Of a DNA stretch of 64,000 nucleotides, positions 1 through 8,007 are shown piece by piece. Source of the stretch: an uncultured Planctomycetales bacterium (GTDB lineage Bacteria; Omnitrophota; Gorgyraeia; Zapsychrales; JBDRMG01); assembly GCA_964478715.1 (NCBI GenBank), contig CAYZIY010000006.1, forward strand, positions 23,186-87,185, read 5' to 3'. Positions within the stretch are counted from its first letter, which is position 1. Every line of letters starts with the position of its first letter. The position numbers were made by a program, and so were the translations under genes. The notes beneath the pieces were generated by a model. It was not told the origin of the DNA. It made no database searches and saw nothing but the letters and a program-made list of their open reading frames with translations.

Positions 1-55
1 AAAAATTGGCGTAGTTTGTTGCCATGATTCAATTCTTTATATGCAAGGAGTAAAA

Positions 56-1261
56 ATGAAAAAGATCGGCGTGATTACAAGCGGTGGAGATTGCGGAGGA
101 TTAAATGCAGTTGTCAAAGGCGTAGCCCAGATGGCTCATCGCCAGGGTATTTCCTGTCATATTATTCCTAATGGATATGCCGGGCTCTATAATCTTTTGG
201 AATTTGACCGGCTGGTGGAGCTGAATCCCGAGCGCGTTGATTCAGTTAATTCCAATCTGGCCGGCTCAGAGGCTGGGCATTCCCGTGTCAAAATAAGAAA
301 AATCAATGATGAAAAGAAATATGATCGCATCAAAGAGGGTTTAAAGAAATTCGGAATCGAAGGCCTTGTGATCAGCGGCGGAGATGATACGGGTTCTGTG
401 ATGGTCGATCTGACGGCTCAGGGTATTGCCTGTGTCCATGCTCCTAAGACAATGGATTTGGATCTGCAAACGTATTCTGTCGGCGGTGATTCGACGGTCA
501 GCCGGATTGCCAGTTATGCCGAAGAAATCAAAACAACCGGACGTACTCATAATCGGATTATCGTAATGGAAGTTTTTGGCCGCTATGCCGGACACACGGC
601 TTTTCGTGGTGGCGTGGCTGCTGATGCGGATGCGATTCTGATTCCCGAGATTCCCGCCGACTTCAATATTCTCTACGATCACATGAAAAAGAGATATGTG
701 AGCCGTATTGAGCAAAGCGATGTGAATGCCGGAACTTATCTGATTATCGTGGCTGAAGGATTAAGGGATGCCAGTGGTCAGGAATTGGTTGATGAATCCG
801 CTGGTGTTGATGCGTTCGGCCATAAAAAACTGGCCGGGGCAGCCAAATTTGTCTGCCAGGAATTGACCAAGCGTCTGAGGAATGATGAGCAAATCAAGGA
901 ATTTATGAAAAAGACAAGAATGTACGTGGAAGGGCTGTACGAAATTCCCGAGGTGCGTTCGGTTTCTCCGGGGCATTTGGTCCGCTCGGGTCATTCTTCG
1001 GCTTTTGACGCGAATTTCGGGAAAGAAGCCGGGGCGGCTGCCGTGATGCTTTTAAGGCAAAAAATAACAGGCGTTACCGTTGTTGGAATTGAGGGAAAAA
1101 CAATCCGTTATATGGCCACCAAGGATGCAATTGTCCAGCGTCACGTGGATTTAGATATCGTTGGCTTACACGAGAATCTGGGAATCTGCTTCGGGCGCAA
1201 GAAAGAGATGATCAAGCCGGAATTCAAGGAAGTGCAAGGCAGGATCGAGAGGCATTTGTAG
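56..1261 (+). CDS. pfp: PPi-dependent 6-phosphofructokinase (Pfp/PfkA family)
   Basis: Protein contains KIGVITSGGDCGGLNAV, GGDDTGS (Asp rather than Gly at the 4th position) and PKTMDLD (Lys) motifs, which are typical of PPi-dependent PFKs. The ORF track starts at 41, but an AAGGAG RBS at 46-51 favours the ATG at 56. Confidence 0.85.
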   Translation: MKKIGVITSGGDCGGLNAVVKGVAQMAHRQGISCHIIPNGYAGLYNLLEFDRLVELNPERVDSVNSNLAGSEAGHSRVKIRKINDEKKYDRIKEGLKKFGIEGLVISGGDDTGSVMVDLTAQGIACVHAPKTMDLDLQTYSVGGDSTVSRIASYAEEIKTTGRTHNRIIVMEVFGRYAGHTAFRGGVAADADAILIPEIPADFNILYDHMKKRYVSRIEQSDVNAGTYLIIVAEGLRDASGQELVDESAGVDAFGHKKLAGAAKFVCQELTKRLRNDEQIKEFMKKTRMYVEGLYEIPEVRSVSPGHLVRSGHSSAFDANFGKEAGAAAVMLLRQKITGVTVVGIEGKTIRYMATKDAIVQRHVDLDIVGLHENLGICFGRKKEMIKPEFKEVQGRIERHL

Positions 1262-1344: not shown

Positions 1345-2190
1345 TTATTTGAAGATGTCTGCAAGAGAATCAATAATATCCGAAGCGATTAAAGATGTTT
1401 TGGAGCGTTTCTCGGCGGCCCTGTTTCCTGCCCGCCCATGGACTAAAACTCCCCACTTCGCGGCTTCATAATCAGAAAGACCCTGAGCTAAGAAGGCCGC
1501 AATGATTCCTGTTAAAACATCCCCTGATCCGGCTGTGGCCATTCCGGAATTGCCGGCTTCCTGGATGGTGATCTTTCCGCTTTGATGGGCAATGACTGTT
1601 TTGTGGCCTTTGAGCACAACGGTGCATTGATTCTTTCGAGCAAAATCAGCAGCAACCGTCTTTCTATTTTTCTCAATGAATGATTTTTCAAAACCTGTTA
1701 ATCGGGCCATTTCGCCGGGGTGAGGGGTGAGAATGCGGGTCTTTGCGTTTTTGTGAAGATTATCTTTGTTACTGGCCAAGGCATTGAGGGCGTCGGCGTC
1801 GACAACGGTTGGTAGAGCAACGCTTTCGTAAATCTTCAGGATGAGCTTTTGTGTGCTCTTGTTCTGAGAAAGGCCGGGACCAAGAGCCATGACAGTACAT
1901 TTCTTTGCAAAGGCAGCAATTTCTTTGTAAGCGCTTAAAGAAAGGGTCTGTTGAGGGGTTTCTTTAAGGCTCCTCGACATGACAACAAAAGGAATCTTTT
2001 TCTGAGCAACTGTGTTGAGACTTTTGGGGACACCAAGGGTGGTTAATCCCGCGCCTGAGCGCATGGCGGCAAGAGTTATGAGGCCGGCTGCTCCCATCAT
2101 GTGACGCGATCCGGCCAGCACAAAAACATGACCGAAATTATTCTTGTGGACGTTCTTTTTATTCCGTAATAAGGGCGCTGGCAACCGCAT
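1345..2190 (-). CDS. nnrD: ADP-dependent NAD(P)H-hydrate dehydratase (YjeF C-terminal domain only)
   Basis: Carbohydrate-kinase-like fold with VLKGHKTVIA and GNSGMATAGSGDVLTGIIAAFLAQG motifs. No N-terminal epimerase domain. Overlaps acpS by 32 nt. Confidence 0.8.
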   Translation of the reverse strand: MRLPAPLLRNKKNVHKNNFGHVFVLAGSRHMMGAAGLITLAAMRSGAGLTTLGVPKSLNTVAQKKIPFVVMSRSLKETPQQTLSLSAYKEIAAFAKKCTVMALGPGLSQNKSTQKLILKIYESVALPTVVDADALNALASNKDNLHKNAKTRILTPHPGEMARLTGFEKSFIEKNRKTVAADFARKNQCTVVLKGHKTVIAHQSGKITIQEAGNSGMATAGSGDVLTGIIAAFLAQGLSDYEAAKWGVLVHGRAGNRAAEKRSKTSLIASDIIDSLADIFK

Positions 2191-2509
2191 AATTTTCGGT
2201 GTGAGAAATCGAAACGAGAATGGTTTGCGAGCAGTCTTTCTCGCAGAAGACGCAAACCGGTCTTCCGTTTTTCTGGTTCATGATCTTAATGTCTTTCCAG
2301 TTAATGTGGGCGTTTTCGCCAAAGGCTTTTAGAACGGCTTCCTTGGCCGCGAACCGGCCCGCATAATGCTGCTGCGGGAAGCGTTGTTTATTGGCGTAGG
2401 CGATCTCATCCTCTGTAAAAACATGCCTGAGAAAAGATTCCCCCCAGCGTTCGATCGCTTTCTGGATCCGTTGCACTTCGATAATATCTATACCGCTTCC
2501 CTTGATCAT
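2159..2509 (-). CDS. acpS: Holo-[acyl-carrier-protein] synthase
   Basis: 116 aa with GIDIIEVQRI N-terminus typical of AcpS. Conserved pdxJ-acpS neighbourhood. Confidence 0.85.
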   Translation of the reverse strand: MIKGSGIDIIEVQRIQKAIERWGESFLRHVFTEDEIAYANKQRFPQQHYAGRFAAKEAVLKAFGENAHINWKDIKIMNQKNGRPVCVFCEKDCSQTILVSISHTENYAVASALITE

Positions 2510-2510
2510 G

Positions 2511-3227
2511 TCAACCTTTGGCTAGAGTCAGCATTTCTTTAACGGCTTTTTTGAGCCCCGCAAAAATAGAGCGGGATATGATGCTGTGGCCGATATTTAA
2601 TTCTTCAATGCCTGCAATGCGGGCCACGGCCCTGGTGTTTTGATAATTGAGGCCGTGGCCCGCATGAACAATCAAGCCCATCTCCTGCGCGGTTTGGACG
2701 GCTTTTTTCAGCTTGGCTAATTGTTTTGAAACTGCCTTTCTTGTTCTGGCCTGCGCATAATTTCCGGTGTGAAGCTCAATGGCATCACAACCTGTCTCTT
2801 TGGCGCATTGGATCTGCCTCTCTGAGGGATCAATAAAAAGACTCACCAGAATTCCTTTTCCTTGGAGCCTTCCAACAATATTTTTGATTCTGCGTATTTG
2901 TTTGCAAACGTCAAGGCCTCCCTCTGTTGTCAATTCCTGCCTTTTTTCTGGAACGAGCGTTGCCTGATCAGGCCTTAAGCGGCAGGCAATAGCAACGATA
3001 TCCTTTTGGATGGACATCTCCAGATTAAACTTGGTTTTCACTTGTCTGTTTAAAAGGCGAACATCGCGGTCATTGATATGCCGGCGATCTTCGCGCAGAT
3101 GAGCGACAATGGCATGTGCGCCTGCCTGCTCAATGATTTTGACGCCCTTCAGAGGATCAGGGTGCCCTTCTCTTCTGGCCTGACGAACTGTTGCGATATG
3201 GTCGATATTGACACCGAGCTTAGGCAT
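2511..3227 (-). CDS. pdxJ: Pyridoxine 5'-phosphate synthase
   Basis: N-terminus LGVNIDHIATVRQAR and TIM-barrel PdxJ motifs. Stop is 1 nt from the acpS start. Confidence 0.9.
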   Translation of the reverse strand: MPKLGVNIDHIATVRQARREGHPDPLKGVKIIEQAGAHAIVAHLREDRRHINDRDVRLLNRQVKTKFNLEMSIQKDIVAIACRLRPDQATLVPEKRQELTTEGGLDVCKQIRRIKNIVGRLQGKGILVSLFIDPSERQIQCAKETGCDAIELHTGNYAQARTRKAVSKQLAKLKKAVQTAQEMGLIVHAGHGLNYQNTRAVARIAGIEELNIGHSIISRSIFAGLKKAVKEMLTLAKG

Positions 3228-3230
3228 GGC

Positions 3231-3338
3231 TCAAGGAATAGGCCGGACTTCAAAATAAACGTACAGCCAGGTAATGATGGCGAGCGCTAAGGCGATAATC
3301 TTCAAACCGATATTATTGATAAAAAAGTCTCTGATCAT
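3231..3338 (-). CDS. 35-aa single-TM miniprotein resembling the N-terminal membrane anchor of CdaR/YbbR (likely a remnant)
   Basis: Own translation gives MIRDFFINNIGLKIIALALAIITWLYVYFEVRPIP. Its ATG overlaps the cdaA TGA stop (ATGA), and its stop lies 3 nt before the pdxJ ATG. Too short to appear in the ORF track. Confidence 0.4.
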   Translation of the reverse strand: MIRDFFINNIGLKIIALALAIITWLYVYFEVRPIP

Positions 3339-4129
3339 TTCTTATTCTGCGGTTTAATAAACAGACTTTTCAAGATATTGGCAAAACGTTCTCTGTTGAC
3401 AATCGGAATAAATCGTCCGTCATCGGCAATAGAAATTTCCCGGGTTTCTTCCGAAACCATAACGACAATAGCATCCGTTTGCTCTGTTAACCCCAGCGCA
3501 GCCCGATGGCGCGTGCCGATGATTTTATTGAAATTCGGATTCTCGGATAAAGGAAAAAGACAGGCCGCGGCACAGATTCTCTCCCCCCGGATGATAACTC
3601 CTCCGTCATGCAGCGGGGATGTCGTGACAAAAATGCTTTGAAGCAGTTCCGAGCTGATCTTGCTGTCAATGATTACTCCGCTTTCGATGTGAGTTTTGAG
3701 CTGAGTTTCACGTTCGATTGCAATCAGGCAACCGATCTTTTTCTGGGATAATTTATGAACCGCATCGGAAATCTGTTCAATCAAAGCCACAATTTCCGAT
3801 TCTTCTAAAGCGACGTTAAAAAGATGTTGTTGACCTAAGCGCGCAAGCCCCTGGCGGAGTTCCTGCTGAAAGATGATCAATACAGCTATAATGGAAATAG
3901 CGAAAAGTTTTGTGAGCAGCCAATTGAGAGTATGCAGATACAGAAGCTGGCTTAAAAGAAAAGCAATTGTGATATAGGTCATTCCCTTGAGAACCTGAAA
4001 GGCCCGGGTTCCCTGAAAAAAAACCAGAATTTTGTAGAAGACGTACCATAAAATCAAAATCTCAAAAAGCGTTTTAATCGAAAATAAAATAACACTATCG
4101 GGGGCAAAAATTAATTTTAATTGTTCCAT
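3335..4129 (-). CDS. cdaA: Diadenylate cyclase CdaA (c-di-AMP synthase, three N-terminal TM helices plus DAC domain)
   Basis: TM-rich N-terminus and a DAC domain with TTSPLHDGGVIIRGERICAAACLFPLS and TRHRAALGL motifs. Confidence 0.85.
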   Translation of the reverse strand: MEQLKLIFAPDSVILFSIKTLFEILILWYVFYKILVFFQGTRAFQVLKGMTYITIAFLLSQLLYLHTLNWLLTKLFAISIIAVLIIFQQELRQGLARLGQQHLFNVALEESEIVALIEQISDAVHKLSQKKIGCLIAIERETQLKTHIESGVIIDSKISSELLQSIFVTTSPLHDGGVIIRGERICAAACLFPLSENPNFNKIIGTRHRAALGLTEQTDAIVVMVSEETREISIADDGRFIPIVNRERFANILKSLFIKPQNKK

Positions 4130-4144
4130 TGGAAATAATATTTT

Positions 4145-5017
4145 CTATGCGAAACAGATTGCGTCGCTCAAGCGAACTACTTGCTTCATCTCTCTAACAT
4201 CATGGACTCTGATGATATGGACTCCCCGGGATATTGCCACAGCAACCGAAGCCGCGGTTCCCAGCATTCGATGACAAACATCTTGTTTTAACACTTTTCC
4301 GATAAAGGACTTACGGGATGTTCCGATTAGAAGCGGCAGATTAAGACAGTGAAATTTATCAAGCTGTTGCAAAATCTTTAGATTATGCTCGACCGTCTTG
4401 CCAAACCCGATTCCCGGATCAATTATTATTCTATCCGATTTGATTCCGATTTCCAAGCACTTTTCAGCAGATTTTTTTAGCTCTCGAATAATTTCTTTGA
4501 CGATACTTTTGTAGCGAATATTTTTTTGCATGGTTTTGGGTTTTCCTCTGATGTGCATCAGGACAATGGCGGCATCAAATTTCTTTACGGTTTTGAGCAA
4601 ATCCTCATCACAATGAGTTCCCAGAATATTATTGACCATGCTGGCTCCTGCTTTGAGAGCGGCTAGCGCTACTTCCGGCTTATAAGTATCAATAGAGAGC
4701 GGTTTTCTGGTTATTTTCCTTAAGGCCTTAATAACGGGAACGACACGCTTGATTTCCTCTTGAACGGATACCGGATTTGATCCTGGACGGGTGGATTCTC
4801 CCCCGACATCAAGGATATGCGCTCCTTCTTTGAGCTGATGTTCAGCTTTTTGAATAATAGATTTTAGAGATAAAGACTTTTTGAGGCATCCGTCACCGCT
4901 AAAGGAATCCGGTGTGATGTTCAAAATTGCCATGATTTTTGTTTCTCGATATAAAGGAATGCGATGTTGGCGGGCTTTAAGCAGATAGGACGGGTGTTTT
5001 CTGATAACCGGATTCAT
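4145..5017 (-). CDS. folP: Dihydropteroate synthase
   Basis: ILNITPDSFSGDG and GGESTRPG motifs. Conserved ftsH-folP synteny. Confidence 0.9.
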   Translation of the reverse strand: MNPVIRKHPSYLLKARQHRIPLYRETKIMAILNITPDSFSGDGCLKKSLSLKSIIQKAEHQLKEGAHILDVGGESTRPGSNPVSVQEEIKRVVPVIKALRKITRKPLSIDTYKPEVALAALKAGASMVNNILGTHCDEDLLKTVKKFDAAIVLMHIRGKPKTMQKNIRYKSIVKEIIRELKKSAEKCLEIGIKSDRIIIDPGIGFGKTVEHNLKILQQLDKFHCLNLPLLIGTSRKSFIGKVLKQDVCHRMLGTAASVAVAISRGVHIIRVHDVREMKQVVRLSDAICFA

Positions 5018-5035
5018 GTATGAAGCATTATCGTC

Positions 5036-6970
5036 TTATGCGGATTGAGGAGGTGGCGCAGCCCCACCCTCTTGTTCCTTGACTTCGCCTGTCTCGATTC
5101 TCAATAATTCTTTGGCTTCCTCAACGTCAAGAACTTCTCTTTCCATCAATGCCTGGGCCAGCTGGTTGAGCTTTTGTCTGTTTTCGTTTAAAAGCTTTTT
5201 CCCGCGACTGTAAGACTGTTCCACAAAAAGGCGGACCTCATCATCAATAGCTTTCGCTGTTTCCTCGCTGTAATCCTTTTGTTCCATCATATCCCGGCCC
5301 AAAAACAACTGATGATTATGGCGGCCCAATGTGAGGGTGCCCAGCCGTTCACTCATTCCAAATTCGCAGACCATTTTTCGGGCGATTTGAGTGGAGGCCT
5401 GCAGGTCGTTTTGCGCGCCGGTGGTGATATTTTTCAGGCAGATTTCTTCCGATGCGCGACCCCCCAGCGTTACCGCGATCTTGCCAAAAAGTTCCTCTTT
5501 GCTCCAATAGTGCCGGTCTTCGATGGGAGGCGTCATGGTATATCCACCGGCCATGCCTCGGGGAATAATCGAAACTTTTGTAAAGGGATCAACCTCTTCA
5601 ATCAAAAGGGAAAGCAGCGCGTGACCCGCTTCATGGTAGGCCGTGATTTCTTTTTCTTTCCTTGATATCTTACGCGATTTTTTCTCCGGCCCCATTGTGA
5701 CCCGTTCGATAGCGGCCACAAATTCATCATTACCGATAGCTTCTTTATCTTTACGGGCGGCTAAAAGAGCAGCCTCGTTACAGACATTAGCCAAATCGGC
5801 GCCAGAGAAATAAACTGTCTGCCGAGCGATTTTTTTAAAATCAACATCAAGCTCCAGCTTTAGATTTTTAGTATGCACTTTAAGGATTGCCTCTCGTCCG
5901 AGGATATCCGGAAGCGAGACGACGATTTGCCGGTCGAATCGGCCGGGTCGAAGCAGGGCCGGGTCCAGGGTATCCGGACGGTTGGTTGCCGCAATCAAAA
6001 TAAGTCCGGCTTGTGTGTCAAAACCATCCATTTCGACAAGCAGCGCGTTTAAGGTTTGCTCCCGTTCGTCATGGCCGCCGCCGATTCCCGAAAATCTCAA
6101 TCGACCAACCGCGTCGATTTCATCAATAAAAACAATACAGCCCTTGCCGGACATTTTCGAAGCCTTGCGGCCTTGCTCAAAAAGATCCCGAACACGGGAA
6201 GCGCCAACACCGACAAACATCTCGACAAAATCTGAGCCGCTTAAGGAAAAAAACGGGACTCCAGCTTCACCGGCAACGGCTTTAGCCAAAAGCGTTTTTC
6301 CTGTTCCCGGGGGACCTATCAAGAGGACGCCTTTGGGTATTTTTCCTCCGAGACGCTGGAATCTTTTTGGTTCTTTTAGGAATTCAATTACTTCCTGAAG
6401 TTCTTCTTTTTCTTCGTCAACTCCGGCCACATCGTTGAATGTGATTCGTCCCTGCTCATTATTGGTATTGATTTTAGCGCGCGATTTTCCAAAGGACCAA
6501 ATCTTATTGCCCAGCTGGGCGCCCCTGTTGGACATCCACCAGAAAAACAGGATCAAAAGACCGATCGGCAATAGGCTCCCCAGAATGCTCCAGAGAACAC
6601 TGGGCTTTTCGACCTTAAAATCGTCGACATTTTTTCTCAGCAGATCCAGAAGGACTTTGTCGTCTTCGGGAATGGTTACCCGGAAGCGTGTTCCATCCGA
6701 GCGGACACCATCAAGCATGGTTTCGGTTTTCACCACAGAGGCAATTTTCTGGGTTTTTTTGTTGCCTTGAAGGAGTTTGTAAAACTCGCTGTATTTTATC
6801 TCAACGGGATTGGTCAAGGATCCGGTTGTTTGAAACTGACTGAGAAGCAGCATCATCGCAAAGATAATAAATACCCAGAGAAAAATATTATTGTTGGGCT
6901 GCGGCGGAAGATCTTTTCTTCCCGGTTTTCGCTTGGGAGTATTTTTTTTGTTAGGTCTTTGATTGTCCAT
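5036..6970 (-). CDS. ftsH: ATP-dependent zinc metalloprotease FtsH
   Basis: Two N-terminal TM helices, AAA module ([13 protein letters not shown]) and an HEAGH zinc motif. Confidence 0.95.
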
Positions 6971-7020: not shown

Positions 7021-8007
7021 TCAAGGCTTTCTTATAGAGAAGATGACAGCGGATGGTTTTTTTTGGACCCAAATACCAAAAGGCAGATGCACGCAAGAAC
7101 CGACCGGTCGCTGGATGATGAGCTGATCTAGCTCAAGAAGATGTGAAAAAGAGATTCGACGGGTGTGCCCGACAATTTTTTCTATGGCTAAGCGAAGAAT
7201 CATTCTTTGCAGAGAGACAGGTTGTTGTCTCCATTTATCCAGAGATAATACAGTTTGGCCCGCTGGTTCTTTCTTGACAATTCTGTGGTAGATTTTTTCT
7301 CCCGATTGTCGAAGAAAAGAGTAGTCTTCAAGGGCTGTCCGGCCCAAATAACTCAGAATAGTTCGCATTTGACTTTGATATTCTTTTTCAAGATGAGGTA
7401 AAAGTTTATGGCGTATTCTGTTTCGTAAAAGATTTGTGTTTCGATTGCTGGGATCATGGCAATATTTGATTTTATTCTTCCTTAGATAATCTTTGATTTG
7501 GGATCGACTGATGTTTATCAGCGGTCGAATGAGGCGGATGTGGTCGCGCTCTGCGCAAGGACTTATTCCCTTAAGGCCTTGCAGACCTGTTCCCCTGATA
7601 ATACGCATGAGAACCGTTTCCGCCAAATCATCCTGATGGTGCCCTAAGGCGACGGCGGCAGCTTTATGTTTTATGGCTGCCTGAATCAGGAAACCCAAAC
7701 GCCTCTCCCTGGCCTGTTCTTCTAGGTTTCCCTTTGCTTTCTTGAGATCCAACACTTTTTTGCAAATAATAACACATTGATTTTCTCGCGCGGCTTTTTC
7801 TGTAAACTTCTGAAATCTATCTGAATCTTTAAGTAATCCATGATTGAAGTGGGCTACAAGGAGTTGTATGCCCAGTCGGTGTCGTAAACGGATCAGGATA
7901 TTCAGCAGGGCTATGGAATCAGGTCCTCCGGAGACAGCGACAATGATCCGCTCTCCTTTCTGGATCATGACATGATCGTTAATCGTTTTCTCGATTTCTT
8001 TAAGCAT
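7021..8007 (-). CDS. tilS: tRNA(Ile)-lysidine synthetase
   Basis: PP-loop SGGPDS motif near the N-terminus. Conserved tilS-ftsH order. Confidence 0.8.
   Translation of the reverse strand: MLKEIEKTINDHVMIQKGERIIVAVSGGPDSIALLNILIRLRHRLGIQLLVAHFNHGLLKDSDRFQKFTEKAARENQCVIICKKVLDLKKAKGNLEEQARERRLGFLIQAAIKHKAAAVALGHHQDDLAETVLMRIIRGTGLQGLKGISPCAERDHIRLIRPLINISRSQIKDYLRKNKIKYCHDPSNRNTNLLRNRIRHKLLPHLEKEYQSQMRTILSYLGRTALEDYSFLRQSGEKIYHRIVKKEPAGQTVLSLDKWRQQPVSLQRMILRLAIEKIVGHTRRISFSHLLELDQLIIQRPVGSCVHLPFGIWVQKKPSAVIFSIRKP

Follow-up and report, generated by a model that had tools for sequence, protein, structure and literature searches.

The membrane-bound diadenylate cyclase CdaA is an essential osmoregulatory c-di-AMP synthase, and in the Firmicutes Bacillus subtilis, Listeria monocytogenes, and Staphylococcus aureus the gene directly after it encodes the regulator CdaR (YbbR), with glmM completing a cdaA-cdaR-glmM module. 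Firmicute CdaR has an N-terminal stub and transmembrane (TM) helix followed by three or four YbbR domains, for a total of ~310-450 aa; these domains are extracellular (PMC10636490), and the envelope-sensing input of the protein has been attributed to this ectodomain (PMC10117814). Two-hybrid reports place the contact with CdaR on the TM region of CdaA (PMC6368335, PMC8573169, PMC8316131). Full-length CdaA must itself be embedded in the membrane to make c-di-AMP efficiently, and its tetramer interface falls in the TM domain in an AlphaFold2 model that agrees with cryo-EM classes (PMC11686323). How CdaR controls CdaA 'remains unclear' (PMC8573169), and opposite effects of CdaR have been reported in different species (PMC10117814). 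The PDB holds no solved CdaA-CdaR membrane complex; its entries are of YbbR ectodomains and DAC domains, and 9G69 resolves DAC and GlmM only.

Two groups of small proteins provide further points of comparison. KdpF, AcrZ, CydX, and MgtS are single-helix subunits of 30-50 aa, encoded in the operon of their partner and acting through helix-helix contact; none is known to have arisen from a bigger regulator with several domains. In eukaryotes, microProteins (for example LITTLE ZIPPER and the ID proteins) descend from a multi-domain ancestor, retain only the interaction module, and act as dominant-negative competitors of their full-length paralogues.

We examined a contig stretch of 64,000 nt (the window) in which the cdaR position is occupied by a gene of 35 codons, here called micro-cdaR (3231..3338, minus strand, with a TGA stop; product MIRDFFINNIGLKIIALALAIITWLYVYFEVRPIP). 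It lies between cdaA (3335..4129, minus strand; TIGR00159 1.1e-70, PF02457 3.1e-42, PF19293 CdaA_N 7.7e-6), whose product is a three-helix TM domain joined to a DAC domain and is the presumed partner of the micro-cdaR product, and pdxJ, encoding pyridoxine 5'-phosphate synthase (2511..3227, minus strand; PF03740 1.2e-97). Reading the sequence directly, the micro-cdaR ATG (3338-3336) shares bases with the cdaA TGA (3337-3335), so that the cdaA stop is nested in an ATGA overlap (3335..3338, minus strand) of the geometry expected for translational coupling. At its other end the gene stops at 3233-3231, followed by 3 nt (3230-3228) and the pdxJ ATG (3227-3225). No Shine-Dalgarno-like motif precedes the micro-cdaR ATG, where the sequence is A-rich instead, so we propose coupling to cdaA from the geometry. 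Between cdaA and pdxJ we saw no convincing terminator and no convincing internal promoter that would split cdaA from micro-cdaR.

The surrounding genes all lie on the minus strand, in the order tilS (7021..8007), ftsH (5036..6970), folP (4145..5017; PF00809), cdaA, micro-cdaR, pdxJ, acpS (2159..2509; Pfam PF01648), and an NAD(P)H-hydrate dehydratase/carbohydrate-kinase gene (1345..2190; Pfam PF01256). Unlike in the Firmicute module, glmM does not follow micro-cdaR, its place being taken by pdxJ, and no GlmM-like ORF was found within the 64-kb window. A parallel in gene order is the Borrelia turicatae operon cdaA-bt0009(ybbR)-bt0010(acpS) (PMC8316131), which likewise links cdaA, ybbR, and acpS outside Firmicutes without glmM, but BT0009, in contrast to the stump, carries a YbbR-domain annotation, and no pdxJ stands in between. 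Outside Firmicutes, cdaA-cdaR-acpS may be a widespread linkage that takes the place of cdaA-cdaR-glmM.

The micro-cdaR product has the features of a small membrane protein: 35 aa, one hydrophobic helix, conservation, and a gene adjoining cdaA. Its TM core, IGLKIIALALAIITWLYVY (codons 10-28; 3255..3311, minus strand), is the top-scoring 19-aa hydropathy window (mean Kyte-Doolittle 2.04) and contains the signature residues K13, A16, L17, L19, A20, T23, W24, and Y26. AlphaFold2 models the peptide as a single helix spanning residues 2-31 with a mean pLDDT of 86. It has no sequence relationship to KdpF, AcrZ, CydX, or MgtS. Pfam and NCBIfam scans of the 35-aa peptide returned nothing useful, the sole weak match being to Vpu (E 0.047); a blank Pfam scan is expected because PF07949 models the CdaR ectodomain only. 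We also considered a non-coding RNA element at this position and rejected it, as an Rfam scan of 2000..5200 gave zero matches at E<=1.

The gene had been picked out by a sequence-only reading, made from the letters and a list of ORFs, which described an ORF between cdaA and pdxJ with its ATG on the cdaA stop and its own stop 3 nt from pdxJ; our reading of the sequence gives the same coordinates. That reading also called the ORF unannotated, which holds insofar as it falls below the 60-aa ORF cutoff used there, but the same 35 residues have already been called as a gene in public assemblies (P0127, in NCBI and Logan). Several 32-aa relatives have been named 'YbbR domain-containing protein' by JGI/IMG, and one cluster carries the NCBI name 'hypothetical protein [Candidatus Omnitrophota bacterium]'. 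A full-text literature search found no paper on a TM-only CdaR or on c-di-AMP regulation in Omnitrophota, leaving the JGI automatic naming as the only prior trace of such a protein and a cdaR pseudogene in Lactococcus lactis MG1363 (PMC10117814) as the nearest reported case.

Homology to CdaR was assessed with a 40-sequence profile headed by the window peptide, scored without a word filter against 1.84 billion representative proteins, which gave 234 matches at E<=1e-3. The longer matches were proteins of 130-156 aa and 312-447 aa that aligned to the profile at residues ~1-35 only (E 2e-8 to 5e-5). Ten of these were scanned with Pfam and all ten contain PF07949 YbbR domains above the Pfam cutoff, with one domain in the short proteins and one to three matched stretches in the long ones. 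For comparison with Firmicutes, we retrieved 120 Bacillaceae proteins using full-length Sediminibacillus CdaR, many of them named 'CdaR family protein' or 'CdaA regulatory protein CdaR' by NCBI or UniRef, and kept their N-terminal 40 residues. Aligned with hhalign, the micro-cdaR profile matches these N-termini over 35 columns, in register from Met1, with a probability of 96% and an E-value of 4.6e-9. Every one of the 120 N-termini beats the 99th percentile of composition-matched shuffles (median 13.5 versus -1.5 bits), and the same N-termini reversed give no score against the micro-cdaR profile. In the opposite direction, the window peptide scores 17.1 bits against a model built from Bacillaceae CdaR N-termini only. 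A second model, limited to the N-termini of YbbR-domain proteins, gives it 56.7 bits; the longer Omnitrophota members of this second set were found through their similarity to the micro-cdaR profile, as the Bacillaceae set was not. In neither case did any of 2000 composition-matched shuffles reach the score of the peptide.

Microproteins, one-domain forms, and Bacillaceae CdaR have in common the signature W5, K/R13, A/S16, L17, L/F19, A20, I/V21, an aromatic residue at 24, Y/F26, V27, and E30. The window peptide keeps the consensus residues N9, K13, A16, L17, L19, A20, T23, W24, Y26, and E30 but has Y-F at positions 28-29, where the family consensus reads N-G. On these alignments, micro-cdaR is homologous to the N-terminal stub and TM helix of CdaR, a resemblance that the sequence-only reading had pointed out and that is borne out by proper alignment and shuffle controls.

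Three other candidates from the profile searches need separate mention. P0211 (375 aa) was rejected as a homologue: its 10 matched stretches come from tandem 'SYVNTELAKKA(D/N)' repeats that mimic the last ten profile positions, 'YVNGELxK'. This match indicates that the tail of the micro-cdaR profile is motif-like. P0140 (71 aa) is an in-frame fusion of the CdaA C-terminus to the microprotein and looked like Rosetta-stone evidence for an interaction; we rejected it as an assembly or frameshift artefact, its source contig (L027; ENA ERZ2470813, NODE_2539) having a coverage of 0.37x and fragmented ftsH, folP, and pdxJ genes. P0170 (135 aa) ends in 23 residues of the microprotein helix (…LKLIALGLAVITWIYVNGELIK), but its first 110 look unrelated; a chimeric gene call or misassembly could account for this protein.

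Where Firmicute CdaR continues into its extracytoplasmic domains, micro-cdaR has none. The peptide gives no PF07949 match even at E<=1, and the YbbR-domain model, which detects control proteins at 3e-36, 4e-28, and 9e-15 (the last a Firmicute CdaR), finds no match in the 64-kb window, in the 360 nt after each micro-ORF of this gene family, or in 138 kb of flanking sequence around cdaA in 14 relatives. All extracytoplasmic YbbR domains have thus been deleted from the gene in the cdaR slot in this Omnitrophota clade, and what remains is ~8 residues, which a CdaR-like topology would place in the cytoplasm, one TM helix, and a tail of 3-7 residues that ends just past the conserved glutamate. As it contains no YbbR domain, the peptide is not a YbbR-family protein despite the JGI name, and we refer to it as a CdaR-derived microprotein.

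Longer forms occupy the same slot in other genomes, within the same gene order as in the window. P0210 (323 aa, three matched YbbR stretches) lies in the order cdaA-[x]-pdxJ-acpS-carbohydrate kinase, where [x] marks the slot; P0190 (142 aa, one YbbR domain; L020) in ftsH-folP-cdaA-[x]-pdxJ-acpS-carbohydrate kinase; and P0153 (70 aa, no YbbR domain; L026) in folP-cdaA-[x]-pdxJ-acpS-carbohydrate kinase. The P0210 and P0190 types have an identical neighborhood and nearly the same N-terminal 33 residues as micro-cdaR, differing in that they retain one to three YbbR domains. Judged by this shared neighborhood, micro-cdaR is positionally orthologous to full-length cdaR. In a neighbor-joining tree of CdaA, built without support values and rooted on a Firmicute with a 411-aa CdaR, genomes with the 312/323-aa forms branch deepest, followed by those with 142/70-aa forms, and then by one clade holding all of the 32-42 aa forms. 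On this tree, the P0210 and P0190 types appear to be evolutionary intermediates of the reduction. Among the 150 best representatives, 119 are at most 100 aa long, 26 are 126-160 aa, and five are 301-500 aa, with none of 101-125 or 161-300 aa; such discrete length classes are in keeping with the removal of entire domains and not with truncation at random. The sequence-only reading had proposed a cdaR reduced to its membrane anchor and suggested looking in relatives for a full-length cdaR after cdaA. The 323-aa form with three YbbR stretches is such a gene, and the proposal is now supported by three independent lines: sequence homology, positional orthology, and stepwise nesting of the size classes on the CdaA tree.

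Four proteins of 65-83 aa (P0152, P0153, P0158, and P0191; for example L026:1644-1856) consist of the helix and a polar tail of 30-50 residues (…ELDKERRLSSREFYQS…GYIMEKE) that has no YbbR match. This tail may have decayed from a linker, which would place these proteins midway from the one-domain to the 32-aa forms.

To gauge conservation, we scanned one genome per species with the CdaA protein and collected 14 loci from Omnitrophota metagenome-assembled genomes (some labelled 'uncultured Planctomycetales'), whose CdaA proteins are 59-72% identical to that of the window, or 61-75% over the best segment. All 14 have an ORF of 32-42 aa between cdaA and pdxJ, making 15/15 with the window. The ATGA overlap with the cdaA stop is present in 13 of the 15 genomes; in the other two the micro-ORF starts a few nucleotides from the cdaA stop, once upstream, overlapping cdaA, and once downstream. 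The stop codon of the micro-ORF differs among the 15 genomes (TGA, TAA, or TAG) and its position is kept. On a 26-codon ungapped core, pS is 0.746 (near saturation) and pN 0.210, giving a pN/pS of 0.28 in frame, compared with 0.92 and 1.92 in the other two frames, and variability at codon positions 1/2/3 is 0.19/0.09/0.43. For cdaA in the same genomes, pN/pS is 0.28 overall, 0.255 in the TM domain, and 0.27 in the DAC domain. Mean pairwise amino acid identity is 0.66 for the micro-ORF core, 0.68 for the CdaA TM domain, and 0.67 for the DAC domain. The matching pN/pS and identity values indicate that the peptide is as constrained as the CdaA enzyme. The family extends beyond these genomes: a search with a profile of the 15 peptides, in an alignment headed by a 42-aa member, found at least 120 clusters of 32-54 aa micro-cdaR proteins among 5.8 billion clusters (best E 2.5e-17). 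Conservation of the 35-aa ORF in related genomes, which the sequence-only reading had named as a check, is thus clear, and micro-cdaR is a real coding gene under purifying selection.

We read micro-cdaR as a functional gene descended from cdaR (ybbR), the regulator of CdaA, encoding a helix that is made together with CdaA and would bind and tune its TM domain, and put the probability of this reading at roughly 70%. It corresponds to one of two fates offered by the sequence-only reading, a retained TM micropeptide interacting with CdaA; the retained gene and the helix fit the evidence, and the interaction with CdaA is what we would expect from CdaR. Since the reported CdaR contact lies on the CdaA TM region, where the tetramer interface is also placed, we infer that the peptide is a co-translated subunit tuning the oligomeric state or activity of CdaA. 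Under this model the peptide would be made alongside CdaA by translational coupling at the ATGA overlap. Its N-terminus would be in the cytoplasm, as in CdaR, and the tail after E30 outside, an orientation predicted from homology to a protein with extracellular YbbR domains. The helix would pack on the three-helix TM domain of CdaA through a conserved face made up of a small-xxx-small motif, A16-L-x-L-A20, and then W24, Y26, and E30. It could thereby serve as a constitutive small subunit that stabilizes or tunes the TM-driven oligomerization on which cyclase activity depends. Having no ectodomain, it would not report on the cell envelope as full-length CdaR is thought to do, and the membrane itself would be the only possible source of any signal it carries. 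It might activate CdaA or inhibit it; both effects have been reported for full-length CdaR (PMC10117814).

The alternative that survives best, which we nonetheless consider unlikely, is that the gene has been retained but its function has moved off CdaA, either to another membrane partner or to a translational relay passing ribosomes from cdaA to pdxJ. pdxJ follows the micro-ORF in 15/15 genomes, and in several the micro-ORF overlaps or abuts the pdxJ start, with an ATGA overlap in L002 and L003 and the 3-nt gap in the window (L006 also has an overlapping upstream ATG, whose assignment as the pdxJ start is uncertain), an arrangement that would suit a relay. Selection on the amino acid sequence as strong as that on CdaA would, however, be needless for a relay ORF, and the start always lies within a few nucleotides of the cdaA stop while the distance to pdxJ varies widely, the LGVNIDH motif of pdxJ lying 2-260 nt past the micro-ORF stop. 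A further point against this alternative is that the conserved residues are the same as those in full-length CdaR.

We regard as improbable a second alternative, modeled on microProteins, in which another locus of the genome encodes a full-length CdaR and the stump acts as its competitor at the CdaA TM domain. The stump does keep the presumed interaction module, and the view of this genome spans 64 kb, but no YbbR domain appears in that window or in the 138 kb around cdaA in the 14 relatives. Moreover, the slot that the stump occupies is that of the ancestral cdaR, which argues for replacement rather than duplication. In this it differs from LITTLE ZIPPER and the ID proteins: micro-cdaR replaces its ancestor in its own locus, and no paralogue is seen in the window or the 138-kb flanks.

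The other fate offered by the sequence-only reading, a decaying cdaR pseudogene left by a nonsense mutation or deletion, has very little left in its favor. Loss of cdaR does happen, as the L. lactis MG1363 pseudogene illustrates, and there too the full-length product is gone, but that case is a strain-level inactivation as opposed to a stump selected across a clade (PMC10117814). micro-cdaR has stayed intact throughout a deep clade (15/15 genomes) and across hundreds of clusters from metagenomes, has a pN/pS of 0.28 that equals the constraint on CdaA, keeps its stop position though the codon varies among TGA, TAA, and TAG, and is followed by no YbbR remnant. Least credible of all is a chance ORF, or a generic hydrophobic resemblance in place of homology to CdaR: short hydrophobic peptides often give spurious similarity, as the weak Vpu match may exemplify, but no composition-matched shuffle scored as high as the real sequences, the alignment to CdaR keeps register from Met1 onward, synteny agrees with homology, and YbbR domains are present in 10/10 of the longer matches.

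Returning to a helix that acts on CdaA, the signature residues held in common with CdaR go beyond the conservation that simple membrane anchoring requires, and the conserved stump suggests that the helix has a function of its own. All that this clade retains of CdaR is the N-terminal helix of ~33 residues, evolving as slowly as the enzyme, which argues that the 'anchor' carries function; K/R13, A/S16, L17, A20, the aromatic residue at 24, and E30 are the conserved candidate functional residues. The stump also makes the question of how CdaR controls CdaA directly testable. A broader and more tentative possibility, to which we give less than even odds, is that the effector module throughout the CdaR family is the N-terminal helix, able by itself to bind CdaA and regulate it, with the YbbR domains an optional sensory add-on. 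If so, the Omnitrophota forms of 323, 142, 70, and 32 aa would amount to a deletion series made by nature that exposes the effector helix, and the shortest of them could make the cyclase responsive to membrane properties such as lateral pressure or lipid packing, and through these to osmotic state, rather than to the cell wall. micro-cdaR also offers a clear bacterial example of a microprotein arising from a multi-domain regulator by stepwise domain loss, and genes of this kind are easily missed with common ORF length cutoffs.

Two features of the intergenic sequences were noted in passing. In one relative, a G+C-rich spacer of ~250 nt (L001:6852-7102) separates the micro-ORF from pdxJ, with segments that look palindrome-like by eye, ccccacgggcaagcccgtgg and ccaccccgcagtacttttgcggggtgg, and it looks like an inserted structured element; spacers between the micro-ORF and pdxJ in other relatives measure 80-110 nt. 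In the window, a strong hairpin at 1284-1313, with nine G-C pairs among its 13 and a T-run after it, separates a convergent phosphofructokinase-like gene (41..1261, plus strand) from the kinase gene at 1345..2190 (minus strand), and is probably a shared terminator that closes the string of genes from tilS to the kinase.
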